Below the pieces are notes generated by a model. It saw nothing but the letters and a program-made list of their open reading frames with translations. It was not told where the DNA came from and made no database searches. Position numbers and translations under genes: made by a program. From positions 1 to 64,000 of the forward strand of contig CAUYUJ010000006.1 in the NCBI GenBank assembly GCA_963575745.1: 64,000 nucleotides of DNA. The letters run 5' to 3'. The stretch comes from Prorocentrum cordatum (lineage: Eukaryota). The stretch's first letter is position 1; each line of letters starts with the position of its first letter. Positions 4,001 to 34,260 of this stretch are shown in pieces.

Positions 4001-4596
4001 GTGTTTCGATTTTCGATGATGACTCGAGCTGAGTGCATGCTATGCATGCCAGGTACATTCCAATCGAAGTAGCGACATGCGAGACATCGAATGGGAGCCT
4101 CAAGAGTGCCCAAATTGATTAGAATTTTCAAAATCAATGAAAAATATCGATTTGTACAATTTTGTATTTTTTGTGTCGGATGATTTTTTTTCTAATTTAT
4201 ATCGATCTATGGGTGACCTAGGGAGTTCTGGTGCATGTTTGTCGACGCAGAATGGTCTCGCGCGTCGACCCGACCAGAAAGGACAATGTGACAACTTTTG
4301 GGTAGTTTTGCGAATATTTGAAAGATATTTGACAATTTATTTTGAGAAATCAGATTTTTACGCCGAGCATTGGCATATAAACGTTGTTCTCTGAGCAGCT
4401 CAGCTCTCTAGAGCCAGTTTTGGTATTAGTTGACTTCCGGGAACCGACTTTATCTTTACTCAAAAAATCTCAATTTGACGTTTTTTTTAGAAAAGCTGAC
4501 AGAAGCTCTCCGCTTCGATCCTAAGCTTTCTTACGGGTACAAGGAGCTCTACGAGGTTCCCGGCGGTGACCAGGTTGACGGTTCACCGCCGGCGCC
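1003..4596 (+). mobile_element. Run of nested and fragmented family B elements, including long variants
   Basis: B 5' motifs at 1192, 1257 and about 2526. B 3' ends at 1139, about 1661 (degenerate), 2016, 2499, 3680 and 4596. About 2740-3280 and 3700-4260 are near-duplicate long bodies. Confidence 0.7.
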
Positions 4597-5766
4597 ATTC
4601 CGGAGCGCTGGAGAGCTAGTTGGCAAGAAAAATCTCGACGGACCTTTTCCTGACTTTTGGTCGGTTGAAAATTTGGTTCTCAAAATTTAACCATTCGTTA
4701 GAGCTCTAGTATTTTTTCCCATGATATTCGATCTTATTCCCGCTCGCCATCTTGATCTCAGCTCGATTGGGTAACTTTGAAGGCCAAAAAGCACACGGGC
4801 GGGAACGGCCGTTTCGAGTCATCTTGATACGCGCTGTCGGTTTTCTCAAGATAACTCGAGCTTGAGGACACCTACAGAGCTGGTCAGCACAGCTAATGCG
4901 TTCAGAATGATCAGGCGCGTTCGCCTGTTGAATCCAGAGGTCTGAACTCGGTCTGCTAGCCGAGCTAGGGTCAGAAACCTATTCGTATTATTCGAGTCAT
5001 TGTAGCATACACTCTCGGTTTTTCGTACTTCGCTCTATCTGTAGGGCAGCCACAGGGCTGATAATCACAGAAATCGATTGAGAATGATCAGGCGCGTTCG
5101 TCTGTTGAACCAAGAGCTCTGAACTTGGCCTGCTCCTCGAGCTAGGTTCGCGAACCCATTGGTATTGTTCGAGTCATCTCGAGACATGCTCTCGGTTTTC
5201 TGTACTCAAATCGTGCTGGGGGAGGGCTACAGTGCTGCTGGTCACAGGAATCGATTCCGAGACATCAGGCGCGTCCGTTCGTCGAACCGAGAGCTCGGAA
5301 CTCGGTCTGCTGCTCGAACGAGATCCGCGAAACTGTTGTATTATTCGAGTCATCCTGAGACTCTCGGTTTTCTGCACTTAATAACTCAGGCTGTATGGGG
5401 GCTGCAGAGCTGGTAATCACAGGAATCGATCCGCAGACATCAGACGCGTCCGCCTGTCGCATTCAGAGGTCTGAACTCGGTTTCATACTCGAGCTCGATT
5501 CAAAAACTGTTTATTCGTTTTGTTAGAGTCATCTTTGAGATGTCTATGATCGCTTGGGATGAAAAACTAGTCGTTCGCTGAAATTCTTTTCCACATTATA
5601 TATTGTCAGGAAGCTCTACGAGTCCCCCGGCGGTAAGAAAGGTTGACGGTTTACCGCCGGCGCCCAGTAATTCCGGGGAGCTGGAGAGCTAGTTGGCAAG
5701 AAAAATACCTCGTAGAGCTCTTCGTCATCGATGAGCTAGAGGAATTCCGGCGCAGGGTGGAGCTAG

Positions 5767-7053
5767 TAACTCGTAGAGCTTCCCTTAGCAAGTTATTGCT
5801 GGAAGCTTAAGAGTAATTCCGGGGAGCTGGAGAGCTAGTTGGCAAGAAAAATCTCGACGGACCTTTTGGTGACTTTTGGTCGGTTGAAAATTTTGTTCTC
5901 GAAATTTGACAATTCGTTAGAGCTCTAGTATTTTTTCTCATGATATTCGAACTTATTCCCGCTCGCCATCTTGATCTGAGCTCGATCGGGTAACTTTGAA
6001 GGCCAAAAAGCACACGGGCGGGAACGGCCGTTTCGAGTCATCTTGATACGCGTTGTCGGTATTTTGTACTTAACTCGAGCTGTAGGGCAGCTACAGTGCT
6101 GGTAAGCACAGCCATCGCACTCAGAATCATCAGGCGCGTTCGCCTGTTGAATCCATAGGTCTGAACTCGGTCTGCTAGCCGAGCTAGGTCCGGAAACCTA
6201 TTCGTATTTTTCGAGTCAACTTGATACGTGTTGTTGGATTTCTCTACTCAACTCGAGCTGTAGGGCAGCTACAGTGCTGGTAAGCACACCTATCGCACTC
6301 AGAATCATCACGCGCGTTCGCCTGTTGAATCCAGAGGTCTGAACTCGGTCTGCTAGCCCAGCTAGGTCCGCAAACCTATTCGTATTATTCGAGTCATCTT
6401 GGCAGACGCTCTCGATTTTCTGTACTTAACTCGAGCTGTAGGGCAGCTACAGGGCTCATTGTCACAGACATCGATGGGGAACCATGAGTCGCGTTCGTCT
6501 ACTGAACCGAGAGCTCTGAACTCGGTCTGCTGCACGAGTTAGGTTCGCGAAACTATTCGTATTGTCCGAGTCATCTTGAGAAGTGCTCTCGGTTTTCTGT
6601 ACTTAACTCGTGTTTGGGGCCGGCTACAGTGCTGCGAGTCAGACATATCGATTTGAACACATGAGGCGCGTTTGTCGGTCGATTCCAGAGCTCGGAACTC
6701 GGTCTGCTGCTCGAACTAGGTCCGCAAAACTATTCTATTATTCGAGTCGGTTCTGTCGGTTTTCTGCACTTAACTCGAGCTGTAGGGGGGCTGCAGGGCT
6801 GGGAATCACATGAGTGGATTCGCAGACATCAGACGCGGCCGCCTGTCGCATTCAGAGGTCTGAACTCGGTTTGATACTCGAACTGGGTTGCGAAACCGGG
6901 TGGTTTTTGTTAGCGTTATCTTGAGAGGTCTATAATCGCTTGGGCTGAAAAACTAGTCGTTCTTTGGAGTTTTTTCCAACACTTTATATTTTCAGGAAGC
7001 TCTACGAGTCCCCCGGCGGTAAGAAAGGTTGACGGTTTACCGCCGGCGCCCAG
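5767..7053 (+). mobile_element. Intact family A element (1287 bp) nested in a family B element
   Basis: Begins TAACTCGTAGAGCTTCC and ends CGCCCAG. Flanks GGAGCTAG | TTGGCCGACC rejoin the B consensus with no duplication. Repeat units at about 6043, 6221, 6399 and 6576. Confidence 0.85.
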
Positions 7054-8476
7054 TTGGCCGACCCGGCCAGAACGGACAAAGTGATAACTTTTGGGTGGTT
7101 TTGCAATTTTTTCAAAGATATTTGACCATTTATTTTGAGAAAGCAGATTTTTACGCCGAGCATTGGAATATAAATTCCTCTCTGACCAAAGCTCAGCTCT
7201 CTCGATGCATTTTTGCACGAGCTGACTTCCGGGAACTGAGCGAATATGAACATCAAAAAAATCCAATTTGAAGATTTTCGAAAAATATTTATTTTTCCAC
7301 TCTGGGTCGATTCTCTTCACTCTTATCAGTGAAAAGAGCTCTACGAGGTTCCCGGCGGTGACTAGGTTGACGGTTCACCGCCGGCGCCAGTTGGCAAGAA
7401 AAATCTCGACGGACCTTTTGGTGACTTTTGGTCGGTTGATAATTTTGTTCTCGAAATTCAACAATTCGTTTGAGCTCTAGTATTTTTCTCTAGTATTTCT
7501 TTCCCATGATATTCGATTCTCATTCCCGCTCGCCATCTGATCCATCTCGGATCGGGTTAACTTTGAAGGCAAAAAGCAGGGGGGCAAAAGCAGGGGGACG
7601 GGAACGGCCGTTTGGCGGGAACGGCCGTTTCGAGTCATCTTGGTACGCGCTGTCGGTTTTCTCAAGATAACTCGAGCTTCAGGACACTACAGAGCTGGTC
7701 AGCACAGCTAATGCATTCAGAATGATCAGGCGCGTCCGCCTGTTGAATCCAGAGGTCTGAACTCGGTCTGCTAGCCGAGCTAGGGTCGCAAACCTATTCG
7801 TATTATTCGAGTCATTGTAGCAGACGCTCTCGGTTTTTTGTACTTAACTCGATCTATAGGGCAGCCACAGAGCTCATACTAACAGAAATCGATTGAGACT
7901 TATCAGGCGCGTTCGTCTGTTGCATCAAGAGCTCTGAAATCGGCCTTCTCTCCGAGCTAGGTTCGCGAAACCTATGGTAAATATAACTAATTTTTCGAGT
8001 ATCAATCTGGAGAAGTGCTCTTCGGTTCTTGCTGTAAACTGAATCGTCTGGGGGGGAGGGCCACAGTGGCTTGCTGGTCAAAGGAATCGATTTTCGAGAC
8101 ACCAGTGCGCGTCCGTTCGTTTCGGACCGAGAGCTCGGAACTCGGTCTGCTGCTCGAACGAGATTCCTGCGAAACTTGTTTGTATTTTATTTCGAGATCC
8201 CTAAAAGCTACCTCGGTTTCTGCAATTAACTCTCCCTTGGCTGTATGGGGGGCTGCAGAGCTGGTAATCACAGGAATCGATCCGCAGACATCAGACGCGT
8301 CCGCCTGTCGCATTCAGAGGTCTGAACTCGGTTTCATACTCGAGATCGATTGGAAAACTGTTCGTTTGTTTTGTTAGAGTCATCTTGAGAGGTCTATAAT
8401 CGCTTGGGCTGGAAAACTAGTCGTTCTCTGAAATTCTTTTCCACATTATATGTTGTCAGGAAGCTCTACGAGTCCC

Positions 8477-9712
8477 TCTGATAGGGCCTCTTCTTCTCGA
8501 GATGTTGAAGTTCCCTGTGAGCGGGGGGGGCCTAGGGATTCCCCCAGGCCCCCCCCGAAACGTCGGAGGGTGGCTGTTCCTGGACCTGGACAACAGACGG
8601 TGTATCCTCGTGCGCATCGTGACGCACGCCGGCTTCTGATGTGCTGTACCCCGAGGTGGGAGGAGAAAAGGACACTGGAGTCAAAATATTGGCGTTCACA
8701 GGGGAAGTGGAAGGAGGCCTCGAAACTGACACGATTAGGCAGTACTAAGGGGCAGGCGACGGGTGAACATCCTTGGTGTTTCATGTTCCAGACGATATTT
8801 CCCTCGTATGTGAATCTGGAGGATCGGTGGTGGAGGGCGTGCTCTTTCTCTTACTCTGACTTCGTTCAGTATTGCAGGCAGTTCCTGGAAGCTTGTACTT
8901 TGGGGTCTCTGTTTGACTTGTTTGTTGTCCGTGGAGGAACTGGAGGGAAAGGAGACTACATAAAGGAGAGGGGGGAGGAGATGTTGGCTCGTCCGTTGTC
9001 GGCGAAGGAGTCCGAGAAGCTGGCCCAGAGATTGGCCTCGAACAATGAACAGGAGCCGACTTGGGATCTGAGTGATGATGGGATCGGTCTCGAGCTGACG
9101 GGCGATTCGCTTCTTATCTTTAACTGGATCAATGGTCTCTGGAAGGTTGAGGGAGGAGAAGGAGGAGATGGGGCTTCTTATCGTAGGCGGGTGGCAAATA
9201 TTATTTCTCTTTTGGAAGAGTTGGAGGAGGACGGAATACGACCCCCCTCATGGGGCAACGACTTCATTCGACACATATATCGAGAGAGTAACACAGTAGC
9301 TGATGAACTTACCCACTTAGCACGGGAAGGCCAGATATTCAGAGAGCTGTTCCACCACCATATCTTTCGTTCTGATGTCCGAGACAACTTTCGAGTTATT
9401 GGCCTCCGCGGATCCTTCGACGGCGGAGTGTGCGCCCAAGGTGTGGGCGTTGGCTGGTTTCTGCAGATTGGATATATTCCTCGATTCCATGACCCTTACC
9501 CTGACCCTGAGCATAGAGATAAGAGAGCTCGTGTAGTCTCCCTCTTCCCCCAAGCCTCCTCTCCTTGTCCAATCATATGGGAAATAGTAGGGCGTTGTGC
9601 ACAGGCACTCCCCTCCCATAGCAGTATCACTGACGCTGAGCTTTCGGGTCTCGAGGGCCTCTTGCGGGCCGCAGCCCAGGTGGCCCAAGACCTCCAGCTG
9701 CAGAGAGACTAG
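8477..9712 (+). CDS. C-terminal fragment of a retrotransposon polyprotein with a circularly permuted RNase H-like domain
   Basis: Open frame with LELTGDSLLIFNW (9101), HIYRESNTVADELT (9272), GSFDGGV..GVGW (9416) and ITDAELSGL (9635). Collinear with the C-terminus of the 25466-27929 ORF. The listed start at 8450 lies in host sequence. Confidence 0.75.
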   Translation, partial: SDRASSSRDVEVPCERGGPRDSPRPPPKRRRVAVPGPGQQTVYPRAHRDARRLLMCCTPRWEEKRTLESKYWRSQGKWKEASKLTRLGSTKGQATGEHPWCFMFQTIFPSYVNLEDRWWRACSFSYSDFVQYCRQFLEACTLGSLFDLFVVRGGTGGKGDYIKERGEEMLARPLSAKESEKLAQRLASNNEQEPTWDLSDDGIGLELTGDSLLIFNWINGLWKVEGGEGGDGASYRRRVANIISLLEELEEDGIRPPSWGNDFIRHIYRESNTVADELTHLAREGQIFRELFHHHIFRSDVRDNFRVIGLRGSFDGGVCAQGVGVGWFLQIGYIPRFHDPYPDPEHRDKRARVVSLFPQASSPCPIIWEIVGRCAQALPSHSSITDAELSGLEGLLRAAAQVAQDLQLQRD

Positions 9713-9769
9713 GTAGGCACTTAACGGGCGCTGGGGCGCTCGGTGCCTGGTCAGCCTCCCCAAAAAAAA
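8477..9769 (+). mobile_element. 5'-truncated non-LTR retrotransposon inserted in the 3' hairpin of a family A element
   Basis: Interrupts GAGTCCC[CCGGCGGT]AACAAAGGTTGAC. Ends in a short stem-loop UTR and an A8 tract (9762-9769). The left hairpin arm is lost at the 5' junction, so there is no TSD. Confidence 0.8.
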
Positions 9770-9799
9770 CAAAGGTTGACGGCTACCGCCGGCGCCCAG

Positions 9800-12700
9800 T
9801 TGGCAAGAAAAATCTCGACGGACCTTTTGGTGACTTTTGTCGGTTGAAAATTTTTGTTCTCGAAATTTGACCATTCGTTAGAGCTCTAGTATTTTTCCCA
9901 TGATATTCGATCTTATTCCCGCTCGCCATCGTGATCTTCAGCTCGATTCGGGTAACTTTGAAGGCCAAAAAGCGCACGGCGGGAACGGCCGTTTCGAGTC
10001 ATCTTGATACGCGCTATCGGTATTTCGTACTTAACTCGAGCTGTAGGGCAGCTACAGAGCTGGTGAGCACAGCTATCGCACTCAGAATTATCGCGCGCGT
10101 TCGCCTGTTGAAACCAGAGGTCTGAACTCGGTCTGCCAGCCGAGCTAGGTTCGCAAACCTATTTGTATTATTCGAGTCATCTTGATAGACACTCTCGGTT
10201 TTCTGTACTTAACTCGAGCTTTAGGGCAGCTACAGTGCTTGTAAGCACAGCTATCGCTCTCAGAATCATCACGCGCGTTCGTCTGTTGAATCCAGAGGTC
10301 TGAACTCGTCTGCTAGCCGAGCTAGGTCCGCAAACTCATCAGTATTATTGGAGTGATCTTGATAAACGCTCTCGGTTTTCTGTACTTAACTCGAGCTGTA
10401 GGGCAGCTACAGGGCTCATTGTGACAGACATCGCTGGGGAATTATCAGTCGCGTTCGTCTATCGTACCGAGAGCTCTGAACTCGGCCTGCTGCCCGAGCT
10501 AGGTTCGCGAAGCTGTTCGTATTGTCCGAATGATCTTGAGACATGCTCTCAATTTTCTGCACTCAACTCGTGCTGGGGAAGGGCTACAGTGCTGCAGGTC
10601 GCATGTATCGATTTGCACACATCAGGCACGTCTTTCGGTCGATTCCAGAGCTCGGAACTCGGTCTGCTGCTCGAACTAGGTTCGCAAAACTATTATATTA
10701 TTCGAATCGATACTGTCGGTTTTCTGCACTTAACTCGGGCTGTAGGGGGGCTTCAGTGCTGGGAATCACATGAGTGGATTCGCAGACATCAGACGCGCCC
10801 GCCTGTCGCATTCAGAGGTCTCAACTCGGTTGATACTCGAACTGGGTTGCGAAACTGTTCGTTTTTTGTTAGCGTCATCTTGAGAGGTCTGAAATCGCTT
10901 GGGGCTTAAAAAATAGTCGTTCTTTCGAGTTTTTTTCCACAGTATATATTGTCAGGAAGCTCTACGAGTCTCCCGGCGGTAAGAAAGGTTGACGGTTTAC
11001 CGCCGGCGCCCAGTTAGCCGACCTGACGAAAAGAGACAAGTGATAACTTAACTCGTAGAGAAGCTCTACTTAGCAAGTTACTGCGGTGTTGAAGCCCAGT
11101 TGGCAAGAAAAAGACGGTAATGAAAATAACTCGTAGAGGAGCTGGAGAGCTAAGAGTTCCGGCGCGCTGGAGAGCTATTGGCAAGAAAAATCTCGACGGA
11201 CCTTTTGCTGACTTTTGGTCGGTTGAAAATTTGTTCTCGAAATTTGACCATTCGTTAGAGCTCTAGTATTTTTTCCCATGATATTCGATCTTATTCCCGC
11301 TCGCCATCTTGATCTCAGCTCGATCGGGTAACTTTGAAGGCCAAAAAGCGCACGGGCGGGAACGGCCGGTTCGAGTCATCTTGATACGCGCTATCGGTAT
11401 TTTGTACTTAACTCGAGCTGTAGGGCAGCTACAGAGCTGGTGAGCACAGCTATCGCACTCAGAATCATCAGGCGCGTTCGCCTGTTGAATCCAGAGGTCT
11501 GAACTCGGTCTGCCAGCCGAGCTAGGTTCGCAAACCTATTTGTATTATTCGAGTCATCTTGATAGACACTCTCGGTTTTCTGTACTTAACTCGAGCTTTG
11601 GGGCAGCTACAGTGCTTGTAAGCACAGCTATCGCACTCAGAATCATCACGCGCGTTCGTCTGTTGAATCCAGAGGTCTGAACTCGGCCTGCTAGCCGAGC
11701 TAGGTCCGCAAACCTATCAGTATTATTGGAGTGATCTTGATAGACGCTCTCGGTTTTCTGTACTTAACTCGAGCTGTAGGGCAGCTACAGGGCTCATTGT
11801 GACAGACATCGCTGGGGAATTATCAGTCGCGTTCGTCTATCGTACCGAGAGCTCTGAACTCGGCCTGCTGCCCGAGCTAGGTTCGCGAAACTGTTCGTAT
11901 TGTCCGAATGATCTTGTGACATGCTCTCAATTTTCCTGCACTCAACTCGTGCTGGGGAAGGGCTACAGTGCTGCAGGTCACATATATCGATTTGCACACA
12001 TCAGGCGCGTCTTTCGGTCGATTCCAGAGCTCGGAACTCGGTCTGCTGCTCGAACTAGGTTCGCAAAACTATTATATTATTCGAATCGATACTGTCGGTT
12101 TTCTGCACTTAACTCGGGCTGTAGGGGGGCTTCAGTGCTGGGAATCACATGGATTCGCAGACATCAGACGCGCCCGCCTGTCGCATTCAGAGGTCTCAAC
12201 TCGGTTTGATACTCGAACTGGGTTGCGAAACTGTTCGTTTTTTGTTAGCGTCATCTTGAGAGGTCTGAAATCGCTTGGGCTTAAAAAATAGTCGTTCTTT
12301 CGAGTTTTTTTCCACAGTATATATTGTCAGGAAGCTCTACGAGTCCCCCGGCGGTAAGAAAGGTTGACGGTTTACCGCCGGCGCCCAGTTTCGTTCTCGA
12401 AATTTGACCATTCGTTAGAGCTCTAGTATTTTTTCCCGTGATATTCGATCTTATTTCCGCTCGCCATCTTGATCTCAGCTCGATCGGGTAACTTTGAAGG
12501 CCAAAAAGCGCACGGGCGGGAACGGCCGGTTCGAGTCATCTTGATACGCGCTATCGGTATTTCGTACTTAAACTCGAGCTGTAGGGCAGCTACAGAGCTG
12601 GTGAGCACAGCTATCGCACTCAGAATTATCACGCGCGTTCGCCTGTTGAATCCAGAGGTCTGAACTCGGTCTGCCAGCCGAGCTAGGTTCGCAAACCTAT

Positions 12701-13551
12701 TTGTATTATTCGAGTCATCTTGATAGACACTCTCGGTTTTCTGTACTTAACTCGAGCTTTGGGGCAGCTACAGTGCTTGTAAGCACAGCTATCGCACTGA
12801 GAATCATCATGCGCGTTCGTCTGTTGAATCCAGAGGTCTGAACTCGGCCTGCTAGCCGAGCTAGGTCCGCAAACCTATCAGTATTATTGGAGTGATCTTG
12901 ATAGACGCTCTCGGTTTTCTGTACTTAACTCGAGCTGTAGGGCAGCTACAGGGCTCATTGTGAGAGACATCGCTGGGAATTATCAGTCGCGTTCGTCTAT
13001 CGTACCGAGAGCTCTGAACTCGGCCTGCTGCCCGAGCTAGGTTCACGAAACTGTTCGTATTGTCCGAATGATCTTGAGACATGCTCTCAATTTTCTGCAC
13101 TCAACTCGTGCTGGGGAAGGGCTACAGTGCTGCAGGTCACATATATCGATTTGCACACATCAGGCGCGTCTTTCGGTCGATTCCAGAGCTCGGAACTCGG
13201 TCTGCTGCTCGAACTAGGTTCGCAAAACTATTATATTATTCGAATCGATACTGTCGGTTTTCTGCACTTAACTCGGGCTGTAGGGGGGCTTCAGTGCTGG
13301 GAATCACATGAGTGGATTCGCAGACATCAGACGCGCCCGCCTGTCGCATTCAGAGGTCTGAACTCGGTTTGATACTCGAACTGGGTTGCAAAACTGTTCG
13401 TTTTTTGTTAGCGTCATCTTGAGAGGTCTGAAATCGCTTGGGCTTAAAAAATAGTCGTTCTTTCGAGTTTTTTCCCACAGTATATATTGTCAGGAAGCTC
13501 TACGAGTCTCCCGGCGGTAAGAAAGGTTGACGGTTTACCGCCGGCGCCCAG
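9800..13551 (+). repeat. Three near-identical family A copies in quasi-tandem (9800-11013, 11049-12388, 12389-13551)
   Basis: Shared private variants such as GACATGCTCTCAATTTTCTGCACTCAAC, TTCGAATCGATACTGTC and GGGGCTTCAGTGCTGGGAATCAC. Confidence 0.8.
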
Positions 13552-13676
13552 TCGTGCTGGGGAAGGGCTATAGCTCTGCTGGTCACAGGAATCGATTTCG
13601 AGACATCAGGCGCGTCCGTTCGTCGAACCGATCGCTCGAAACTCGGTCTGCTGCTCGAACGAAATCTGCGAAACTG

Positions 13677-15911
13677 TAACTCGTAGAGCTTCCCTTAGCT
13701 AGTTATAGCTGGAAGCTAAGAGTAATAACTCGTAGCGCTTTCCTTAGCAAGTTATTGCTGGAAGCTTAAGAGTAATTCCGGGGAGCTGGAGAGCTAGTTG
13801 GCAAGAAAAATCTCGACGGACTTTTTGCTGACTTTTGGTCGGTTGAAAATTTTGTTCTCAAAATTTGACCATTCGTTAGAGCTCTAGTATTTTTTCCCAT
13901 GGTATTCGATCTTATTCCCGCTCGCTATCTTGATCTCAGCTCGATCGGGTAACTTTGAAGGCCAAAAAGCAGGCAGGCGGGAACGGCCGTTTCGAGTCAT
14001 CTTGATACGCGCTGTCGGTTTTCTCAAGATAACTCGAGCTGGCGGACAACTACAGAGCTGGTCAGCACAGCTAATGCATTCAGAATGATCAGGCGCGTTC
14101 GTCTGTTGAATCCAGAGGTCTGAACTCGGTCTGCTAGTCGAGCTAGGGTCGCAAACCTATTCGTAGTATTCGGGTAATTGTAGCAGACGCTCTCGATTTT
14201 TTGTACTTAACTTGATCTGTAGGGCAGCCAGAGAGCTGATAATCACAGAAATCGATTGAGAATTATCAGGCACGTTCGTCTGTTCAATCAAGAGCTCTGA
14301 ACTCGGCCTGCTGCCCGAGCTAGTTTCGCGAACTTATTGGTATTGTTCGAGTCATCTTGAGAAGTGCTCTCGGTTTTCTGCACTTAAATCGTGCTGGGGA
14401 GGGCTAGAGTGCTGCTAGTCACAGAAATCGATTTCGAGACATCAGAAGCGTCCGTTCGTCGAACGGAGAGCTCGGAACTCGGTCTGCTGCTCGAACGAGA
14501 TCCGCGAAACTGTTGTATTATTCGAGTCATCCTGAGAGGTACTCTCGGTGTTCTGCACTTAACTCAGACTGTATGGGGGCTGCAGAGCTGGTAATCACAG
14601 GAATCGATCCGCAGACATCAGACGCGCCCGCTTGTCGCATTCAGAGGTCTGAACTCGGTTTCATATTCGAGCTCGATTGGAAAACTGTTTGTTTGTTTTG
14701 TTAGAGTCATCTAGAGAGGTCTATAATCGCTTGGGCTGAAACACTAGTCGTTTTCTGTTTTCTTTTCCACATTATATATTGTCAGGAAGCTCTACGAGTC
14801 CCCCGGCGGTAAGAAAGGTTGACGGTTTACCGCCGGCGCCCAGTTCCGGCGCGCTGGAGAGCTAGTTGGCAAGAAAAATCTCGACGGACCTTTTGCTGAC
14901 TTTTGGTCGGTTGAAAATTTCGTTCTCGAAATTCAACAATTCGTTTGTGCTCTAGTATTTTTTCCCATGATATTCGATCTTATTACCGCTCGCCATCTTG
15001 ATCTCAGCTCGATCGGGTAACTTTGAAGGCCAAAAAGCAGGCAGGCGGGAACGGCCGTTTCGAGTCATCTTGATACGCGCTGTCAGTTTTCTTAAGATAA
15101 CTCGAGCTTCAGGACAACTACAGAGCTGTGCAGCACAGCTAATGCATTCAGAATGATTAGGCGCGTTCGTCTGTTGAATCGAGAGGTCTGAACTCGGTCT
15201 GCTAGCCGAGCTAGGGTCGCAAACCTATTCGTATTATTCGAGTCATTGTAGCAGACGCTCTCGGTTTTTCGTACTTAACTCGATCTGTAGGGCAGCCACA
15301 GAGCTGATAATCACAGAAATCGATTGAGAATTATCAGGCGCGTTCGTCTGTTGAAGAAGAGCTCTGAACTCGGCCTGCTCCCCGAGCTAGGTTCGCGAAC
15401 CTATTGGTATTGTTCGAGTCATCTTGAGAAGTGCTCTCGGTTTTCTGTACTTAAATCGTGCTGGGGGAGGGCTACAGTGCTGCTGGTCACAGGAATCGAT
15501 TTCGAGACATCAGACGCGTCCGTTCGTCGAACTGAGAGCTCGGAACTCGGTCTGCTGCTCGAACGAGATCCGCGAAACTGTTGTATTATTCGAGTCATCC
15601 TCAGAGGTACTCTCGGTTTTCTGCACTTAACCCAGGCTGTATGGGGGCTGCAGAGCTCGTAATCACAGGAATCGATTTGCAGACATCAGACACGTCCGCC
15701 TGTCGCATTCAGAGGTCTGAACTCGGTTCATACTCGAGCTCGATTGGAAAACTGTTCGTTTGTTTTGTTAGAGTCATCTTGAGAGGTCTACAATCGCTTG
15801 GGCTGAAAAACTAGTCATTCTCTGAAATTCTTTCCCACATTATATATTGTCAGGAAGCTCTACGAGTCCCCCGGCGGTAAGAAAGGTTGACGGTTTACCG
15901 CCGGCGCCCAG
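13677..15911 (+). mobile_element. Family A element inserted in another A copy and itself containing A element 13726-14843
   Basis: Outer flanks GCGAAACTG | TTGTATTATTCG and inner flanks CTAAGAGTAA | TTCCGGCGCG both restore the consensus exactly. Confidence 0.9.
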
Positions 15912-16244
15912 TTGTATTATTCGAGTCATCCTGAGAGGTACTCTCGGTTTTCTGTACTTAACTCATACTGTATGGGCTGCAGAGCTGGTAATCACAGAAA
16001 TCGATCCGCAGACAGACATGAGACACATCCGCCTGTCGCATTCAGAGGTCTGAACTCGGTTTCATACTCGAGCTCGATTGGAAAACTGTTTGTTTGTTTT
16101 GTTAGAGTCATCTTTGGAGGTCATCATCGCTTGGGCTGAAAAAACTGGTCGTTCTCTGAAATTCGTTTCCACATATATATTGTCAGGAAGCTCTACGAGT
16201 CCCCCGGCGGTAAGAAAGGTTGACGGTTTACCGCCGGCGCCCAG

Positions 16245-17362
16245 TAACTCGTAGAGCTTCCCTTAGCTAGTTATAGCTGGAAGCTAAGAGTAATTCCGGC
16301 GCGTTGGAGAGCTAGTTGGCAAGAAAAATCTCGACGGACCTTTTGGTGACTTTTGGTCGGTTGAAAATTTTGTTCTCGAAATTTGACAATTCGTTAGAGC
16401 TCTAGTATTTTTTCCCGTGATATTCGATCTTATTCCCGCTCGCCATCTTGATCTCAGCTCGATCGGGTAACTTTGAAGGCCAAAAAGCACACGGGCGGGA
16501 ACGGCCGTTTCGAGTCATCTTGATACGCGCTGTCGGTTTTCTCAAGATAACTCGAGCTTCAGGGCAGCTACAGGGCTCGTCAGCACAGGTAATGCATTCA
16601 GAATGATCAGGCGCGTTCGCCTGTTCAATCCAGTGGTCTGAACTCGGTCTGCTAGCCGAGCTAGGGTCGAAAACTTAATCGTATTATTCGAGTCATTGTA
16701 ACAGACGCTCTCGGTTTTTCGTACTTAACTCGATCTGTAGGGCATCTACAGAGCTGATAATCACAGAAATCGATTGGGAACTATCAAGCGCATTCGTCTG
16801 TTAAATTAAGAGCTCTGAACTCATCCTGTTTCCCGAGCTAGGTTCGCGACCCTATTGGTATTGTTCGAGTCATCTTGAGAAGTGCCTTGGTTTTCTGTGC
16901 TTAAATCGTGCTGGGGAGGGCTACAGTGCTGCTGGTCACAGGAATCGATTTCGAGACATCAGGCGCGTCCGTTCGTCGAACCGAGAGCTCGGAACTCGGT
17001 CTGCTGCTCGAACGAGATTCGCGAAACTGTTGTATTATTCGAGTCATCATGAGAGATACTCTCGGTTTTCTGCACTGAACTTAAGCTGTATGGGAGGCTG
17101 CAGAGCTGGTAATCACAGGAATCGATCCGCAGACATCAGACGCGTTCGCCTGTCGCATTCAGAGGTCTGAACTCGGTTTCATACTCGAGCTCGATTGGAA
17201 AACTGTTCGTTTGTTTTGTTGGAGTCATCTTGAGAGGTCTATAATCGCTTGGGATGAAAAACTAGTCGTTCTCGGAAATTCTATTCCACAGTATATATTG
17301 TCAGGAAGCTCTACGAGTCCTCCGGCGGTAAGAAAGATTGACGGTTTACCGCCGGCGCCCAG
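16245..17362 (+). mobile_element. Intact family A element (1118 bp)
   Basis: Complete 5' inverted-repeat motif, body and 3' hairpin; abuts the previous element's CCAG end. Confidence 0.85.
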
Positions 17363-20270
17363 TTGGTCGACCCGGCCAGAAAGGACAAAGTGATAACTTT
17401 TGGGTGGTTTCGCATCTTTTTGAAAGATATTTGACAATTCATTTTGAGGAAGCAGATTTGTCGCACCTGTAAATAATTATGAGGGCCCCTCTGTCTTAGT
17501 ATGAGCTCTGTAGGCGCACTTCTACTATGCAAACACTTGGAGGAACCATCTTCATGTCGAGACGAAAAAAGAATTTTCCTTTTTTTCCAGAAATGCTTCC
17601 AGAAGCTCTCTCTTTCGACTCCGGGCACTCTTATGCGTGAAATCAGCTCTACGACGTTCCCGGCGGTGACCAGGTTGACGGTTCACCGCCGGCGCCAGTT
17701 ATAGCTGGAAGCTAAGAGTAATTCCGGCGCGCCGGAGAGCTAGTTGGCTCGAAAAAAAAGAAATGAACTTTTCACAACTTTTGGTCGGTTGAAAATTATG
17801 TTCTCGAAATTCAACAATTCGTTTGAGCTCTAGTATTTTTTCCCGTGATATTCGATCTCATTCCCGCTCGCCATCTTGATCTCAGCTCGATCGGGTACCT
17901 TTTACTGTCAAAAAGCACACTGACGGGAACGGCCGTTTCGAGTCATCTTGATACGCGTTGTCGGTATTTTGTACTTAACTCCAGCTGCAGAACAGCTACA
18001 GAGCTGGTGAGCACAGCTATCGCACTCAGAATCATCAGGCGCGTTCGCCTGTTAAATCCAGAGGTCTGAACTCGCTCTGCTAGCCGAGCTAGGTCCGCAA
18101 ACCTATTCGTATTATTCGAGTCAACTTAATACGCGTTGTCGGTATTTTCTACTTAGCTCGAGCTGTGGGGCAGCTACACCTATTGCACTCAGAATCATTA
18201 GGCGCGTTTGCCTGTCCAATCCATAGGTCTGAATTCGGTCTGCTAGCCGAGCTAGGTCCGCACACCTATTCGTATTATTTGTTTCAACTTGATACGCGTG
18301 GTGGGTATTTCGTATTTAATCCGAGCTGCAGGGCAGCTACAGTGCTGGTATGCACAGCTATCGCACTCAGAATCATCAGACGCGTTCGCCTCTTGACTCC
18401 AGAGGTCTGAACTCGGTCTGCTAGCCGAGCTAGGTCCGCAAATCTATTCTTATTATTCGAGTCATCTTTAAAAACGCTCTCGGTACTTTCTGTACTTAAC
18501 TCGAGCTGTAGGCAGCTACAGAGCCTACAGCCACGTAAATCGATTGCGAATTATCGGGCGCGTTTGTCTGTTGTATCGAGAGCTCTGAACTCGGCCTGCT
18601 GTGCGAGCTCGGTTCGCGAAACTATTCGTCGAATCATCGTGAACGTTGCTCTCAATTTTCTGCACTCAACTCGTGCTGCGGGAGGGCTACAGTGCTGCAG
18701 GTCATAGAAATCGATTTGCACACATCAGGCGCGTTCGTTGGTGGATTCGCGAGCTCAGAACTTGGTCTACTGCTCGAAAGAGGTCTGTGAAACTATTATA
18801 TTATTCGAGTCATCCTGAGAGATGCTGTCGGTTTCCTGCACTTAACTCGGGCTGTAGGGGGGCTGCAGGCCTGGTAATCACATGAGTGGATTCGCAGATA
18901 TCAGACGCGCCCGCCTGTCGCATTCAGAGGTCTGAACTCGGTCTGATGAGCGTCCGCTTGTCGCATTCAGAGGTCAAACAATATTCACTATGAGTCAGAA
19001 TGCTGGTAGGTGCTCTCGGTTTTCTCAGCTTGGAAGCTCTACGAGTTCCCCGGCGGTAACCAAGGTTGACGGTTTACCGCCGGCGCCCAGTTTTGGTCGG
19101 TTGAAAATTTTGTTCTCGAAATTTGACAATTCGTTAGAGCTCTAGTATTATTTCCCGTGATATTCGATCTTATTCCCGCTCGCCATCTTGATCTCAGCTC
19201 GATCGGGTAACTTTGAAGGCCAAAAAGCGTCCCGGCGGGAACGACCGTTTCGAGTCATCTTCATACGCGCTGTCGGTATTTTGTACCCAACTCGAGCTGT
19301 AAGGCAGCTACAGAGCTGGTAAGCACAGCTATCGCACTCAGAATTATCAGGCGCGTTCGCCTGTTGAATCCAGAGGTCTGAACTCGGTCTGCCAGCCGAG
19401 CTAGGTCCGCAAACCTACTCGTATTATTTGAGTCATCTTGATAGACACTCTCGGTTTTCTGTACTTAACTCGAGCTTTAGGGCAGCTACAATGCTGGTAC
19501 GCACACCTATCGCACTCAGAATCATCACGCGCATTCGCCTGTTCAATCCAGAGGGCTGAACTCGGTCTGCTAGCCGAGCTAGGTCCGCAAACCTATTCGT
19601 ATTATTCGAGGCATCCTGATAGACGCTCTCGGTTTTCTGTACTTAACTCGAGCTGTAGGGCAGCTACAAGGCTCATTGTGACAGACATCGATCGGGAATC
19701 ATCAGTCGCGTTCGTCTATTGAATCGAGAGCTCTGAACTCGGCCTGCTGCCCGAGCTAGGTTCGCGAAACTGTTCGTATTGTCCGAATGATCTTGAGAAG
19801 TGCTCTCGGTTTTCTGCACTGAACTCGTGCTGGGGGAGGGCTACAGTGCTGCAGGTCACATGTATCGATTTGCACACATCAGGCGCGCCTTTCGGTCGAT
19901 TCCAGAGCTCGGAACTCGGTCTGCTGCTCGAACTAGGTTCGCAAAACTATTATATTATTCGAGTCGATACTGTCGGTTTTCTGCACTTAACTCGGGCTGT
20001 AGGGGAGCTACAGGCTGGAGGAATCACATAAGTGGATTCGCAGACATCAGACGCGCCCGCCTGTCGCATTCAGAGGTCTGAACTCGGTTTGATACTCGAA
20101 CTGGGTTGCGAAGCTGTTTGTTTTTTGTTAGCGTTATCTTGAGAGGTCTGAAATCGCTTGGGCTTAAAAAATAGTCGTTCTTTGGAGTTTTTTCCCACAG
20201 TATATATGTCAGGAAGCTCTACGAGTCCCCCGGCGGTAAGAAAGGTTGACGGTTTACCGCCAGCGCCCAG
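17363..20270 (+). mobile_element. B 3' part (to 17698) followed by two A 3' parts (17699-19090, 19091-20270)
   Basis: Family-diagnostic bodies and 3' ends. Confidence 0.75.
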
Positions 20271-20615
20271 TACCTCGTAGAGCTCTTCGGCATCGATGAG
20301 CTAGAGGAATTCCGGCGCGGGGTGGAGCTAGTTTGCCGACCCGATCAAAAGAGACAATATGATAACTTTTGGGTGGTTTGGCAATTTTTTTAAAGATATT
20401 CGACAATTCATTTTAAGAAAGCACATTTGTCGCACCTGTGAACGACTGTGAGGGCCTCTCTGTCTTAGTATGAGCTCTGTAGGCGCACTTTTACTATCAA
20501 AACACAGGAATGCTTCCAGAAGCTTTCTCTTTCGACTCTGAGCACTCTTACGCGTGAAAGGAGCTCTACGAGGTTCCCGGCGGTGAGCAGGTTGACGGTT
20601 CACCGCCGGCGCCAG
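20271..20615 (+). mobile_element. Intact short family B element (345 bp)
   Basis: TACCTCGTAGAGCTC...GAGCTCTACGAGGT, then hairpin CCGGCGGTGA/TCACCGCCGG and CGCCAG. Confidence 0.85.
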
Positions 20616-20726
20616 TAACTCGTAGAGCTTCCCTCAGCAAGTTATTGCTGGAAGCTTAAGAGTAATACCTCGTAGAGCTCTTCGGCATCGATGAGCTAGA
20701 GGAATTCGGGCGCGGGGTGCAGCTAG

Positions 20727-22099
20727 TGACTCGTAGAGCTTCCCGAAGCTAGTTGCTGGAAGCTTAAGAGAAATTCCGGCACGCTGGAGAGCTAGTTGGC
20801 TCGAAAAAAAAGAACTGAACTTTTCACAACTTTTGGTCGGTTGAACAATTTGTTCTCGAAATTTGAACATTCGTTAGAGATCTAGTATTTTTTCCCGTGA
20901 TATTCGATCATATTCCGGCTCGCCATCTTGATCTCAGCTCGATCGGGTACCTTTTACTGCCAAAAACCACACTGGCGGGATCGGCCGTTTCGAGTCATCT
21001 TGATACGCGTTGTCGGTATTTTCTACTTAACTCGAGCTGTAGGGCAGCTACAGTGCTGGTAAGCACACCTATCGCACTCAGAATCATCAGGCGCGTTCGC
21101 CTGTTGAATCCATAGGTCTGAACTCGGTCTGCTAGCCGAGCTAGGTCCGCAAACCTATTCGTATTATTCGAGTCAACTTGATACGCGTTGTCGGTATTTT
21201 CTACTTAACTCGAGCTGTAGGGCAGCTACAGTGCTGGTAAGCAACCTATCGCACTCAGAATCATCAGGCGCGTTCGCCTGTTGAATCCATAGGTCTGAAC
21301 TCGGTCTGCTAGCCGAGCTAGATCCGCACACCCATTCGTATTATTTGAGTCAACTTGATACGCGTGGTGGTATTTTGTACTTAATTTGAGCTGCAGCGGA
21401 GCTACAGAGCTGGTAAGCACATCCATCGCATTCAGAATCATCACTCGGTCTGCTAGCCGAGCTAGGTCCGCAAATCTATTCGTATTATTCGAGTGATCTC
21501 GACAAACGCTCTCGGTTCTCTGTACTAAATTCGAGCTGTAGGGCAGCTACAGAGCCTATAGTCACAGAAATCGATTGGGAATTATCGGGCGCGTTTGTCT
21601 GTTGTATCGAGAGCTCCGAACTCGGCCTGCTGCCCGAGTCCGAATCATCGTGCGCAAACCTATTGGTATTATTCGAATCATCTTGATAGGCGCCCTCGGT
21701 TTCCTGTACTTAACTCGGACAGCTACAGGGCTGATAGTTACAGAAACCGATTCAGAATCATCAGTTGCGTTTGTCTGTCGAATCCAGAGCTCTGAACTCG
21801 GTCTGCTGCGCGATCCAGAATCACGAAACTGTTCGTATTCTTCCAGTCATCTTGAGAGCTGTCGGCGTTCTGCACTTAACTCGGGCTGTAGGGGCTGCAG
21901 GGCGGGTAATCACAGGAATCGATTCGGAGACATTAGACGCGTTCGTCTGTCGCATGCAGAGGTCTGAACTCGGTCTGATACTCGAGTTGGGCTGAACAAC
22001 TATTCTTTCTCTGCAATTTCTTCGACATTATATGTTGTCAGGAAGCTCTACGAGTCCCCCGGCGGTAACAAAGGTCGACGGTTTACCGCCGGCGCCCAG
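20727..22099 (+). mobile_element. Intact family A element nested in B (5' at 20666), which is nested in A (5' at 20616)
   Basis: Starts TGACTCGTAGAGCTTCC. Flanks GCAGCTAG | TTGGCCGACC. Repeat period 178 bp (21001 vs 21179). Confidence 0.85.
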
Positions 22100-22135
22100 T
22101 TGGCCGACCCGGCCCCGACGAACAATGTGCGAATT

Positions 22136-23549
22136 TTCCCGGATAGCTCCTTGGAGAGCTGAGGGTTTCAGATAAGATGCCGGAGGAGGGTGGTGAGGGA
22201 GACACGCCCACCTCCGCCGGTCCACGATTCTCGCAGCAGGTTGCCGGAGCTTGCAGCGGGTCCGGGAGCGTGGCTTCCTAGCGTTTCCCAATGCGCGTGG
22301 CTCCAGGGTGCGCAAAGCGCTTCGGCAGAGCTTCGGAAGAGCTTCGGCAGTTTTTCCAGGCTCCTAGGCAGATCTTCCTTGTGCGCTTTGCAGTGCCCCA
22401 CGCATCGCAAATCGCAAACGGCGCCCCTGCAAGCGTCTCCTGCAAGGTTTCCAGCGTCCCGCGCATCGTTTCAAGCGGCACGGCAGAGGTCCCCGTGCGG
22501 CGTTTTGGAGGGCTTCGCGCTCCGCGCCTGGCTTCGCTATCCGGGTTTTTCCCGGATAGCTCCTTGGAGAGCTGAGGGTTTCAGATAAGAAGCCGAAGGT
22601 GGGTGGAGGGAGACACGCCCACCTCCGCCGGTCCACGATTCTTGCAGCAGGTACCTCGTAGAGCTCTTCGGCATCGATGAGCTAGAGGAATTCCGGCGCG
22701 GGGTGGAGCTAGTTGGTCGACCCGGCCGAGGCGGACAAAGTGATAACTTTTTCCCGGATAGCTCCTTGGAGAGCTGAGGGTTTCAGATAAGAAGCCGGCT
22801 GTGGGTGGTGAGGAGCACACGCCCACCTCCGCCGGTCCACGCTCGTCGCAGCAGCTTGCCGGAGCTTGCAGCGGGTCCGTGAGCGTGGCTTCCTAGCGTT
22901 TCCCAATACGCGTGGCTCAAGGGTGCGCGAAGCGCTTCGGCAGAGCTTCGGAAGAGCTTCGGCAGTTCTTCCAGGCTCCTAGGCAGATCTTCCTTGCGCG
23001 CTTTGCAGGGCCCCACGCATCGTAAACGACGCCCCTGCAAGCGTCTCCTGCGAGGTTTCCAGCGTCCCGCGCATCGTTTCAGGCGGCCTGGCAGAGGTCC
23101 CCGTGCGGCCTTCCGCGCTTGGCTTCGCTATTCCCGGATAGCTCTGTGAGAGCAGAGGGTTTCAGAGAAGAAGCCGGCGGTGGGTGGTGAGGAGGACACG
23201 CCCACCGGTCCACGATCGTCGCAGCAGCTTGCCGGAACCGGCAGCGGGTCCGGGAGCGTGGCTTCCTAGGGTTTCCCAATACGCGTGGCTCCAGGGTGCG
23301 CGAAGCGCTTCGGCAGAGCTTCGGAAGAGCTTCGGCAGTTCTTCCAGGCTCCTAGGCAGATCTTCCTTGCGCGCTTTGCAGGGCCCCACGCATCGTAAAC
23401 GGCGCCCCTGCAAGCGTCTCCTGCGAGGTTTCCAGCGTCCCGCGCATCGTTTCAAGCAGCCTGGCAAAGGTCCCCGTGCGGCGTTCCGCGCTTGGCTTCG
23501 CTATCCGGGTTTCGGACGCTTACAAAACCGAGTTTTGGACGCTTGCAAG
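22136..23549 (+). mobile_element. Family C elements (about 400 bp, GC-rich), nested in B and in one another
   Basis: 5' TTCCCGGATAGC at about 22136, 22549, 22752 and 23131. Inverted subterminal GCTATCCGGG at 22536 and 23500. 3' tail GGACGCTTACAA. Confidence 0.75.
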
Positions 23550-23846
23550 TCTGTGGTTTTGCGATTTTTTGAAAGATATTTGACCATTCATTTTGAGAAA
23601 GCAGATTTTTCGCATCTGTGAACGGCTATGAGGGTCTCTCTGTCTTTGTATGAGCTTTGTTGGCGGACCTTTACTATGAAAACACTTGGAGCAACCATCT
23701 TTATGTCGACACGAAAACATCAATTTTTCTCTTTTGTTAAGAAATGCTTCGAGAAGCTCTCCCTTTCGAGTCTGAGCACTCTTTCGCGTGGAAGGAGCTC
23801 GAGGTTCCCGGCGGTGACCAGGTTGACGGTTCACCGCCGGCGCCAG

Positions 23847-24894
23847 TAACTCGTAGAGCTTCCCTTAGCAAGTTATTGCTGGAAGATTTAGAGTAATTCC
23901 GGAGCGCTGGAGAGCTAGTTGGCAAGAAAAATCTCGACGGAACTTTTGCTGACTTTTGGTCGCTTGAAAATTTTGTTCTCGAAATTTGACAATTCGTTAG
24001 AGCTCCAGTTTTTTTTTCCTGTGATATTCGATCTTATTCCCGCTCGCCATCTTGATCTCAGCTCGATCGGGTAACGTTGAAGGCCAAAAAGCACTCTGGC
24101 GGGATCGGCCGTCTCGAGTCATCTTGATATGCGCTGACGGTTTTATGAACATAACGCGAGCTCTAGGACAGCTACAGAGCTGGTAAGCACACATATCGCA
24201 TCCAGAATCATCAGACGCGTTCGACTGTTGAATCGAGAGGTCTGAACTCGGTCTGCTAGCCGAGCTAGGTTTGCAAACCTATTGGTATTATTCAAGTCTT
24301 CTTGACAGGCACTCTCGGTTTTTTGTACTTAACTCGAGCTGTAGGACAGCTACAGAGCTGATATTCATAGAAACCGATCTAGAATCATCAGTTGCGTTTG
24401 TGTGTCGAATTTCGAGCTCTGAACTCGATCTGGTGCCCAATCTAGAATCGCGAAACTATCTGTATTGGTCGAACCATCTTGAGAAGTGCTCTCGATTTGC
24501 TGCATTTAACTGGCGCTGAGGGGAGCTACAGTGCTGGTGGTCACAGGAATCGATTTGAAGACATCAGACGCGTCCGCCTGTCGAATCCAGAGCTCGGAAC
24601 TCGGTCTGCTGCCCGAATTAGGTCTGCGAAACTAGTGTATTCTTGGAGTCATCCTGAGAGGTGCTGTCAGTTTTCTGCATTCAACTCGGACTGTAGGGGA
24701 GCTGCAGGGCTGGTAATGACAGGAGTCGACTCGCAGACATCAGACGCGTGCGCCTGTCGCATTGAGAGGTCACAACATATTCACTATGAGTCGGAATGTT
24801 GGTAGGTGCTCGGTGTTCTCAACTTCAGTCGAGCTGGAAGCTCTACGAGTCTCCCGGCGGTAACCAAGGTTGACGGTTTACCGCCGGCGTCCAG
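23847..24894 (+). mobile_element. Intact family A element (diverged subfamily)
   Basis: TAACTCGTAGAGCTTCC start; 3' end GGAAGCTCTACGAGT...ACCGCCGGCGTCCAG. Confidence 0.8.
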
Positions 24895-25143
24895 TTTGAA
24901 AGACATTCGATTATTTATTTTAAGAATGCAGATTTTTACGCCGAGCATTGGCACATAAACTCTTCTCTGACAGCAGGTCAGTTCTCTCGATGCAATTTTG
25001 CATCAGTTGACTTCCGGGAACTGCGCGAATATGAGCGTCAAAAAATCGAATTTGAAGATTTTCGAAAAATCACTCGTACCAGTGAGAGGAGCTCTACGAG
25101 GTTCCCGGCGGTGACCGGGTTGACGGTTCACCGCCGGCGCCAG

Positions 25144-25465
25144 TTGCCGGAGCTTGCAGCGGGTCCGGGGGCGTGGCTTCCTAGCGTTTCCCAATACGCG
25201 TGGCTCCAGGGTGCGCAAAGCGCTTCGGCAGAGCTTCGGAAGAGCTTCGGCAGTTCTTCCAGGCTCCTAGACAGATCTTCCTTGTGCGCTCTGCAGGGCC
25301 CACGCATCGTAAACGGCGCCCCTGCAAGCGTCTCCTGCGAGGTTTCCAGCGTCCCGCGCATCGTTTTAAGCGGCACGGCAGAGGTCCCCGTGCGGCGTTT
25401 TGGAGCGCTTCGCGCTCCGCGCCTGGCTTCGCTATCCGGGTTTTGGACGCTTACAATGGACGCTT
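25144..25465 (+). mobile_element. 3' part of the family C element split at 22651/25144
   Basis: GCAGCAGG (ending 22651) plus TTGCCGGAGC (25144) restores the C sequence seen at 22234-22250. Confidence 0.8.
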
Positions 25466-27929: not shown

Positions 27930-27982
27930 GGACTCTGCACGGCTAGGGCGCACGCGCCCTGTGTAGCCGACCCCAACACCCA
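25466..27982 (+). mobile_element. 5'-truncated non-LTR retrotransposon with 13-bp TSD, inserted in a family C 3' tail
   Basis: ACAATGGACGCTT at 25453-25465 and 27983-27995. 3' UTR stem-loop followed by a CCCCAACACCCA tail. Confidence 0.9.
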
Positions 27983-28121
27983 ACAATGGACGCTTACAAG
28001 TTGGGTCGGTTGGACGAACTTCGTGAGAGATTTGACCATTCGTTTTGAGATTTGGTATTTTTTGCACCTAAAGTGGATTATTTCGCGTTCGCCAGTGAAT
28101 TCTGAGGTCTATAGGTGCAGT

Positions 28122-33969: not shown

Positions 33970-34260
33970 TTTCCGGAGAGCTCGCTGAGAGCTAAAGGGT
34001 TTAAGATTAGAAGCCAGACGGTGGTGGTGCCCCAGGAGCTTTCCACGGCGGTCGACGTTCCCCGCAGCGCCCCCGGCGGCCCGGCAACTGGTCCGGGGGA
34101 GCTTCCGGCAAGCTTCCACGCGTGCCTGCATGCGTGCAGGCACGCATGGAAGTGTTTCTGGCAGCGATTCCGCAGCGCGCCAGGGGGTCACCCCTAGGCT
34201 TTCCAGGAAAGATTTCCCGTCCCCGAGATTCTCTTCGCTCCAGGTTTTGGACGCTACCAA
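33970..34260 (+). mobile_element. Family D element (relative of C)
   Basis: 5' TTCCGGAGAGC and tail TTTTGGACGCTACCAA. Related 3' ends GCTCTCCGGGGTTTCGACGCTACCAAGAGGACGCTACCAAG at 37489-37529 and at 31385-31422. Confidence 0.6.

Follow-up and report, generated by a model that had tools for sequence, protein, structure and literature searches.

Positions 1 to 64,000 of contig CAUYUJ010000006.1 from Prorocentrum cordatum (GenBank assembly GCA_963575745.1; hereafter the window) hold, between positions 1 and 37395, a co-oriented nest of two related noncoding element families, A and B/Bs, as delimited by tiling with three internal reference copies. Here, we report the structure of this nest, which, judged from its cis-acting features, is most probably a stack of rolling-circle transposons of the Helitron2/Helentron type (HLE2), non-autonomous and belonging to two sister families.

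Family A is ~1.1 kb long (~1,118 bp; reference copy, 16245 to 17362) and contains 3.8 to 4.4 copies of a 177- to 178-bp internal repeat. Family B/Bs ranges from 0.35 to 1.2 kb; Bs copies are 345 to 405 bp long, and B proper is represented by 22652 to 23846, with two 373-bp units. The 41-nt 3' end of the copy ending at 16244 (16204 to 16244) occurs 19 times at ≤3 mismatches, 18 of them on the plus strand, where none would be expected by chance. A looser scan recognized 38 3' ends in positions 1 to 38500, all on the plus strand; the sole minus-strand pattern match in that interval (32174) has neither inverted repeat nor hairpin. Matching 5' starts number 20 by a strict scan and 22 by a loose one. 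The right edge of the stack lies at 37395, with unrelated GC-rich DNA from there on, and more degenerate element copies, part of them on the minus strand (e.g., a 3' end at 48809), lie between 40 and 49 kb. Four head-to-tail junctions have zero bases between the copies, and the adjacent copies 9800 to 11015, 11178 to 12390, and 12389 to 13552 are 97 to 98% identical. Degenerate ends also occur in the stack (e.g., at 1661, 11049 to 11137, and 33510). Rfam and tRNA scans of the window gave zero matches.

Precise nested insertions

For each putative insert, the 22 nt of left flank and 22 nt of right flank were joined and compared with the window by a Hamming scan, with the cut also shifted by −3 to +3. 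The initial annotation had named six insertions, each said to lie in front of TT and to restore its host on removal with no base gained or lost. This held for all six: 13726 to 14843, 13677 to 15911, 5767 to 7053, 20727 to 22099, 34989 to 35371, and 22652 to 25143 gave 1, 2, 2, 7, 4, and 1 mismatches of 44, respectively, at the exact cut, against 10 to 18 at shifted cuts, and TT followed the insertion point at 6/6 sites. The last of these had been given as a "C" split at 22651/25144 and corresponds to the insert 22652 to 25143 (1/44 at the exact cut). The nested pair and the Bs copies bearing on the test are as follows (all on the plus strand; positions prefixed A or B count along the reference copies, and a caret marks the insertion point).

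13552 to 13676, plus strand: left piece of a host A copy (A662 to A785), immediately following the 3' end (13551) of another element.
13677 to 15911, plus strand: outer inserted A, with its own pieces at 13677 to 13725 and 14844 to 15911 (1,117 bp) and the inner element within; inserted at GAAACTG^TTGTATT in the host's 177-bp repeat (2/44 mismatches at the exact cut, 11 to 16 when shifted).
13726 to 14843, plus strand: inner inserted A, 1,118 bp, at GAGTAA^TTCCGG (A49/50), just past the 5' hairpin of the outer element (1/44 mismatches at the exact cut, 10 to 16 when shifted).
15912 to 16244, plus strand: right piece of the host A copy (A786 to A1118), ending with the 3' inverted-repeat copy (16186 to 16200), hairpin arms (16204 to 16213 and 16228 to 16237), and the tail CGCCCAG (16238 to 16244).
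16245 to 17362, plus strand: complete A reference, 1,118 bp, abutting the previous 3' end head to tail with zero bases between; its 177-bp internal tandem repeat occupies 16509 to 17177.
5706 to 7390, plus strand: Bs in two pieces (5706 to 5766 and 7054 to 7390), split at GAGCTAG^TTGG by the A copy 5767 to 7053.
34556 to 34948, plus strand: Bs, 393 bp, an exact insertion in an A leader (A97/98).
34989 to 35371, plus strand: Bs, 383 bp, at TCGAAA^TTCAAC (A137/138; 4/44 mismatches at the exact cut, 13 to 17 when shifted).

Further exact inserts were 34556 to 34948, 1192 to 12388 (with a one-base ambiguity in a T run), 20666 to 36254, 2588 to 11013, and 31502 to 32639. Out of 22 5' starts, 16 were evaluable, the remaining 6 being situated in degenerate sequence or flush against the end of another element. 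Host sequence was restored exactly in 11/16, extra bases were present in 3/16, and 2/16 (31431 and 2527) were unclear. The extra bases amount to 3 (CGG) at 31784 to 32183, 4 (TTAG/TTGA) at 1257 to 1661, and 13 at the Bs copy 5706 to 7390, where they form an exact 13-bp direct repeat, TTGGCAAGAAAAA, at 5693 to 5705 and 7391 to 7403. With 3/16 inserts carrying extra bases, absence of target duplication is the rule here, not a law; the earlier statement that these elements make none stands for the six named inserts and for 11/16 overall, and fails for those three. The 13-bp repeat gives the only junction in the stack that clearly resembles a target duplication.

The region is built of discrete, stacked insertions and is more than a satellite. 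Satellite-like traits are present as well, in the internal 177-bp tandem repeats, the head-to-tail junctions, and the 97 to 98% identity of neighbors. These traits, together with the co-orientation of copies, the 373-bp tandem units, and the very high k-mer depth over A and B parts (given below), would suit a complex satellite or higher-order repeat grown by unequal crossing-over and segmental duplication, with no transposition at all. We regard that as very improbable, because complete units sharing the two ends lie within hosts at nine or more different positions and, when removed, leave the host sequence intact to the base, because minus-strand copies occur outside the stack (e.g., the 3' end at 48809), and because relatives with the same ends stand alone elsewhere. 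The last point comes from a metagenome scan with a 20-nt 3' arm pattern, which returned 32 loci; ~10 were real relatives, and the rest were chance matches in GC-rich DNA. The real relatives, on contigs of 1 to 3.3 kb, also have T after their ends, and same-end elements stand there singly in other flanks; positions 3 to 1044 of one locus (L027) form a complete 1,042-bp element. A scan of viral contigs with the repeat-plus-hairpin pattern gave 75 matches, none of which had the second hairpin arm and none of which was a real copy.

Termini and target choice

Complete copies begin with T-A-(A/C)-CTCGTAGAGC, within a 5' hairpin. The first 14 to 16 nt after the initial T recur in inverted orientation, and the 3' copy of this repeat ends 41 to 44 nt before the terminus in 11/11 complete elements; the perfect run is 14 to 16 nt long in 9/11 and shorter, owing to mismatches, in the other 2. 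The repeat differs by family with both copies changing together (ACTCGTAGAGCTTCC in A, ACCTCGTAGAGCTC in B, and GACTCGTAGAGCAC in metagenome locus L027). Past the 3' repeat copy follow 3 to 5 nt, a 10-bp GC stem with a 13- to 14-nt loop, and the tail (G)CGCC(C)AG. Across 28 distinct sequences, 95.7% of 280 cells in the 3' stem were paired, versus 24 to 62% with the partner slid; one pair was A-T in 17 sequences and G-C in 10, and four pairs were invariant. The stem was recovered in DNA folds (z, −1.8 to −3.5). The 5' hairpin was closed by positions 3 to 6 in 10/11 5' ends, with different stem sequences. The designation of the ends as 5' and 3' is itself a candidate assignment, made by likeness.

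The base after the 3' end was T in 37/38 cases (P = 3.6e-20 at 27% T; 3' ends in 1 to 38500), and the dinucleotides there were TT (25), TA (7), TC (4), and TG (1), with C once. A purine preceded the 5' T in 21/22 starts, with A one base further out in 16/22, and 11/11 exact inserts lay at R-T-T. The hexamer CTAGTT occurs only three times in the reference copies (A26/27 and A71/72 in the A reference and B61/62 in the B reference and Bs), and all three are recurrent insertion points. These CTAG^TT sites account for 14/39 right junctions, against 99 TT dinucleotides in the A reference and 105 in the B reference. Just past the 5' hairpin, GAGTAA^TTCC is another repeatedly used site. The preferred target, C-T-A-G^T, is similar to the element's own right junction, C-C-A-G^T. 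An element TA...CCAG set before a T is the same string as A...CCAGT set between T and T; since the element starts with T and T follows it, cuts at R^T and at T^T read identically.

These include every cis-acting feature described for HLE2, which, according to PMC11417382, have terminal inverted repeats of 12 to 16 nt, with the right one followed by a stem-loop, and insert between two T's. The description of Helitron2 in PMC5148889 adds asymmetric inverted repeats with the 3' copy ~20 to 40 bp inside, hairpins at both termini, tandem copies and self-insertions, joined ends, and end-bypass; short central arrays of 160- to 180-bp monomers are given for non-autonomous Helentrons in PMC8268682. The present elements share the inverted repeats with a subterminal 3' copy, the stem-loop after it, and T-T insertion mostly without duplication, and the 5'-terminal hairpin of Helitron2 is present in 10/11 5' ends.

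The ends could instead be merely HLE2-like, belonging to DNA transposons moved by another strand-specific enzyme, such as a tyrosine recombinase or a single-tyrosine HUH nuclease from a different lineage. In keeping with this, no RepHel was found among the scanned window open reading frames (ORFs), the terminal sequences are absent from the main text of the literature searched, and the cut site lies 2 nt before the 5' hairpin and 7 nt after the 3' hairpin. Such hairpin-relative geometry would also suit other hairpin-guided HUH systems (IS200/IS605). We consider this reading unlikely: the full set of asymmetric repeat, two hairpins, T/TT target, 160- to 180-bp repeats, and tandem or self-insertions is described together only for HLE2 in the literature consulted. 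Replitrons have short direct, not inverted, terminal repeats.

A LINE nested in a B-type element

In the right part of the stack, one A copy encloses a 15.6-kb block, which contains the only ORF matching a mobile-element family among those scanned. Its main components, with a second fragment of the same kind further left, are as follows.

20616 to 37395, plus strand: A copy in two pieces (20616 to 20665 and 36255 to 37395) holding the block 20666 to 36254 at A49/50; excision of the block gives 1/44 mismatches at the exact cut, and the stack stops on its right side at the 3' end of this copy, 37395.
20666 to 28123, plus strand: B-type element with 373-bp units ("C" in the initial annotation), in pieces 20666 to 20726, 22100 to 22651, 25144 to 25462, and 27985 to 28123; interrupted by 20727 to 22099, by 22652 to 25143, and by a long interspersed nuclear element (LINE), and missing its own 3' end.
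20727 to 22099, plus strand: A-variant, 1,373 bp, at CAGCTAG^TTGG (B61/62; 7/44 mismatches at the exact cut, 12 to 16 when shifted).
22652 to 25143, plus strand: composite insert in a 373-bp unit, comprising a complete B (22652 to 23846), a complete A variant, A' (23847 to 24894), and a B right-hand part (24895 to 25143).
25463 to 27984, plus strand: 5'-truncated LINE with a reverse transcriptase (RT) ORF, outside the A and B families, flanked by the direct repeat AATGGACG at 25455 to 25462 and 27985 to 27992.
8476 to 9767, plus strand: second 5'-truncated LINE, a C-terminal domain ending in A8, in the 3' hairpin of an A copy.

The window has 181 stop-to-stop ORFs of ≥105 amino acids (aa), of which 172 were scanned against Pfam; the only mobile-element family matched was RVT_1, on the ORF 25185 to 27929 (914 codons, stop to stop). 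Other Pfam matches were a spurious one to MUCL1, the sole match of the open frames across the 90-bp satellite described below, and three sub-cutoff matches in 61352 to 62522. Among solved structures, the RT ORF is closest to R2 and LINE-1 ORF2 proteins. It is located within the B-type element, and its frame continues from the 373-bp unit of that element, as would be seen if A and B were moved by reverse transcription, with a LINE-type RT of the window or of a relative copying their RNA from the 3' hairpin in the manner of short interspersed nuclear elements (SINEs), 5' truncation being frequent. The 38 to 39 3' ends against 20 to 22 5' starts in 1 to 38500, and the short duplications or filler at three junctions, would fit as well.

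By its sequence, however, the RT ORF is a separate, nested 5'-truncated LINE fragment. Alignment with full-length relatives (e.g., 1,306, 1,455, and 1,299 aa) starts only at ORF residue ~107, and the relatives extend ~460 residues further upstream; RVT_1 was present in 7/8 of the relatives scanned, and one had an Exo_endo_phos match at 23.6 bits, just below the 24.5 cutoff. Contigs from four public runs cover exactly 25463 to 27984 and then diverge from the window, one with 1,304 further letters upstream. The 8-bp direct repeat AATGGACG flanking 25463 to 27984 is the LINE's own target duplication, and the B copy 22652 to 23846 has the corresponding sequence without the LINE insert and so resembles an unfilled site. 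The 373-bp unit, present as tandem copies at 22751 to 23504, 22100 to 22650, and 25144 to 25444, is open in one frame and so lends the RT ORF a false N-terminal extension. An apparent 40-bp duplication around the RT module was also considered and set aside as weak resemblance only, given the 8-bp repeat and the contig limits.

The initial annotation had held that an RT encoded by elements with these ends would speak against an HUH origin. The RT as the element's own enzyme was dropped on the extent of its relatives, the contig limits, and the 8-bp duplication; since the ORF belongs to a nested LINE with a duplication of its own, no RT encoded by the elements themselves is in evidence here. Mobilization of A and B by reverse transcription is extremely improbable also on the side of the elements: the A/B 3' end does not resemble that of the LINE (...CCCAAC), complete copies are fixed at the 5' end and lack A tails, 11/16 inserts lack a duplication, and the orphan right-hand parts described below start at A72, B62, A50/47, and A27 and are not scattered. 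With a tail unlike both LINE ends, mostly duplication-free insertion, and hot-spot orphan starts, A and B do not resemble SINEs or other LINE-dependent retroposons. The case also warns annotators that an RT frame left open between transposon ends need not encode the element's own enzyme and can belong to a truncated LINE nested there.

The fragment 8476 to 9767 is 31% identical to the other LINE over the C-terminal domain (E = 8e-26), and its insertion was accompanied by the loss of 12 bases of the A copy's 3' hairpin arm. In the LINE 25463 to 27984, the C-terminal domain has RNase-H-like-looking motifs in an unusual order, kept in a 50%-identical relative (P0002), and Pfam matched only RVT_1.

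Parts of 20271 to 29140 are present in runs labeled marine, estuary, freshwater, salt-lake, and urban metagenomes (plankton among the sources), as well as in runs of organisms coded A to C. No RNA run was among those listed, and in reads aligned over 12400 to 32399 the joints between repeat copies were indistinguishable from those of paralogous copies. In four runs, summed k-mer depth over A and B parts was ~10 to 90 times that over the LINE, a ratio that is not a copy number; in run X1, depth was 5,000 to 50,000 over A and B parts versus 500 to 900 over the LINE.

Surplus of 3' ends and growth of the stack

Including the degenerate end at 1661, 39 3' ends stand against 22 5' starts. The block 20666 to 36254 alone has 16 ends, against 9 starts by the strict scan and a further, degenerate one at 33510, and because the two halves of a single A copy enclose it exactly, the surplus is not an effect of the window edge. 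Pieces lacking a partner are element right-hand parts that set in exactly at hot spots (A72, B62, A50/47, and A27), right after another element's end, a pattern that random 5' truncation would not give. The surplus is best explained by terminator bypass, in which transposition from the 5' end of an inner element would run past its terminator to that of a host, so that the right-hand remainder of its hosts would be copied too; 23847 to 25143, a full A' followed by B917 to B1195, is compatible with this. An equal alternative is that short, similar left-hand parts were lost by recombination or slippage.

Two irregular joints were seen. A 51-bp remnant at 11049 to 11099 has a 5' inverted-repeat start and a ...CCCAG end and looks like an internally deleted element; a degenerate A start then follows at 11127. 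At 28124 to 28330, a chimeric joint runs from a partial B 373-bp unit straight into the A leader at ~A63, with no recognizable element start.

Several observations weigh against assignment of the stack to HLE2. Pfam detected neither a Rep nor a helicase domain, nor one of any other transposase, in the 172/181 window ORFs of ≥105 aa that were scanned, and no long ORFs occur on the ~10 related metagenome loci (1 to 3.3 kb; no Pfam scan). Covariation supports only one 3' hairpin pair, and the fold energies of the termini are only modestly better than those of shuffles (z, −1.1 to −3.5). The surplus of hairpin-bearing ends can also be read as 5' truncation, and the extra junction bases of 3/16 inserts, above all the exact 13-bp repeat, are not predicted by pure HUH insertion. 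The initial annotation had proposed a stack of HUH-mobilized elements in place of a satellite; the discrete insertions and the Helitron2/Helentron cis features bear it out in part, and the HUH mobilization, read from the ends, is putative.

On the HLE2 reading, a RepHel (a protein joining an HUH Y2 nuclease to a helicase) from another locus of the genome would nick one strand at R^T, the element's 5' end, peel the strand off, and stop at the 3' hairpin and CCAG^T signal. The strand would then be joined to DNA nicked in the same way at the target, where CTAG^T resembles the element's own CCAG^T end. Such a single-strand nick-and-join mechanism would leave no target duplication and would give precise head-to-tail junctions, and because orientation would be fixed relative to the target motif, self-insertion would yield a co-oriented stack.

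More tentatively, self-targeting of HLE2 through CTAG^TT in their own 5' leader, combined with weak termination that copies right-hand "staircases," could build a satellite-like array by transposition alone; we see this as a possibility worth stating that is rather less likely than its contrary. If true, a rolling-circle transposon could in this way turn directly into satellite-like or centromere-type DNA, with very high k-mer depth and nucleosome-sized internal repeats, in a microbial eukaryote. The stack is in any case of interest as a base-resolved record of Helitron2-type target choice (purine-T cut, CTAG^TT, fixed orientation, and precise head-to-tail junctions) and shows how such elements can accumulate into satellite-like DNA.

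Among known systems, the closest are the HINEs, non-autonomous Helentrons such as Drosophila DINE-1 and the Pacific oyster Cg170 carriers, which likewise combine inverted repeats and a stem-loop with T-T insertion without duplication and, as far as the published accounts were drawn on, lack coding capacity, reach very high copy number, and carry central 160- to 180-bp monomers (here, ~4.4 × 177 bp). The present elements differ in their strong preference for CTAG^TT within their own 5' leader and in terminal sequences that are new to the literature searched; these were absent from its main text, where only unrelated primers and similar strings appeared, supplements and Repbase-type libraries lying outside the search. 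FoHeli1 and FoHeli2 of Fusarium oxysporum share asymmetric repeats, hairpins at both ends, insertion before T, self-insertions, and tandem copies (PMC5148889) but are autonomous with RepHel and have other terminal sequences and the target TNAT|T. Canonical Helitrons (HLE1) also insert without duplicating the target, have a hairpin that stops a few bases short of the 3' terminus, and gain downstream sequence through end-bypass. According to PMC11417382, HLE1 have TC...CTRR ends, lack terminal inverted repeats, and enter between A and T, in contrast to the ends TA(A/C)CTCG... and ...GCGCC(C)AG and the inverted repeats found here.

Prokaryotic IS91/ISCR and IS200/IS605 elements also insert strand-specifically at a motif like their own end, without duplication, and show one-ended or read-through transposition; they use other enzymes, and the analogy is mechanistic only. 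The best-supported placement of A and B is as a new family within a known class, HLE2, marked by the self-targeting motif and by the false lead of the nested LINE. Should an autonomous partner be found, they would be convenient for testing how an HLE2 transposase recognizes termini and targets; failing that, they are an ordinary, tidy example of that class.

No recognizable host gene was found anywhere in the window. Outside the stack, positions 38000 to 40000 and 56000 to 60000 are 69 to 75% GC, with many overlapping open frames and no Pfam match among the scanned ORFs of ≥105 aa. A long imperfect (GAT)n tract of ~245 units occupies 61393 to 62125. A 90-bp satellite at 46485 to 48101 has ~18 copies of 96 to 97% identity, with diverged 87- to 90-bp relatives at 50463 to 50691 and 61090 to 61297.

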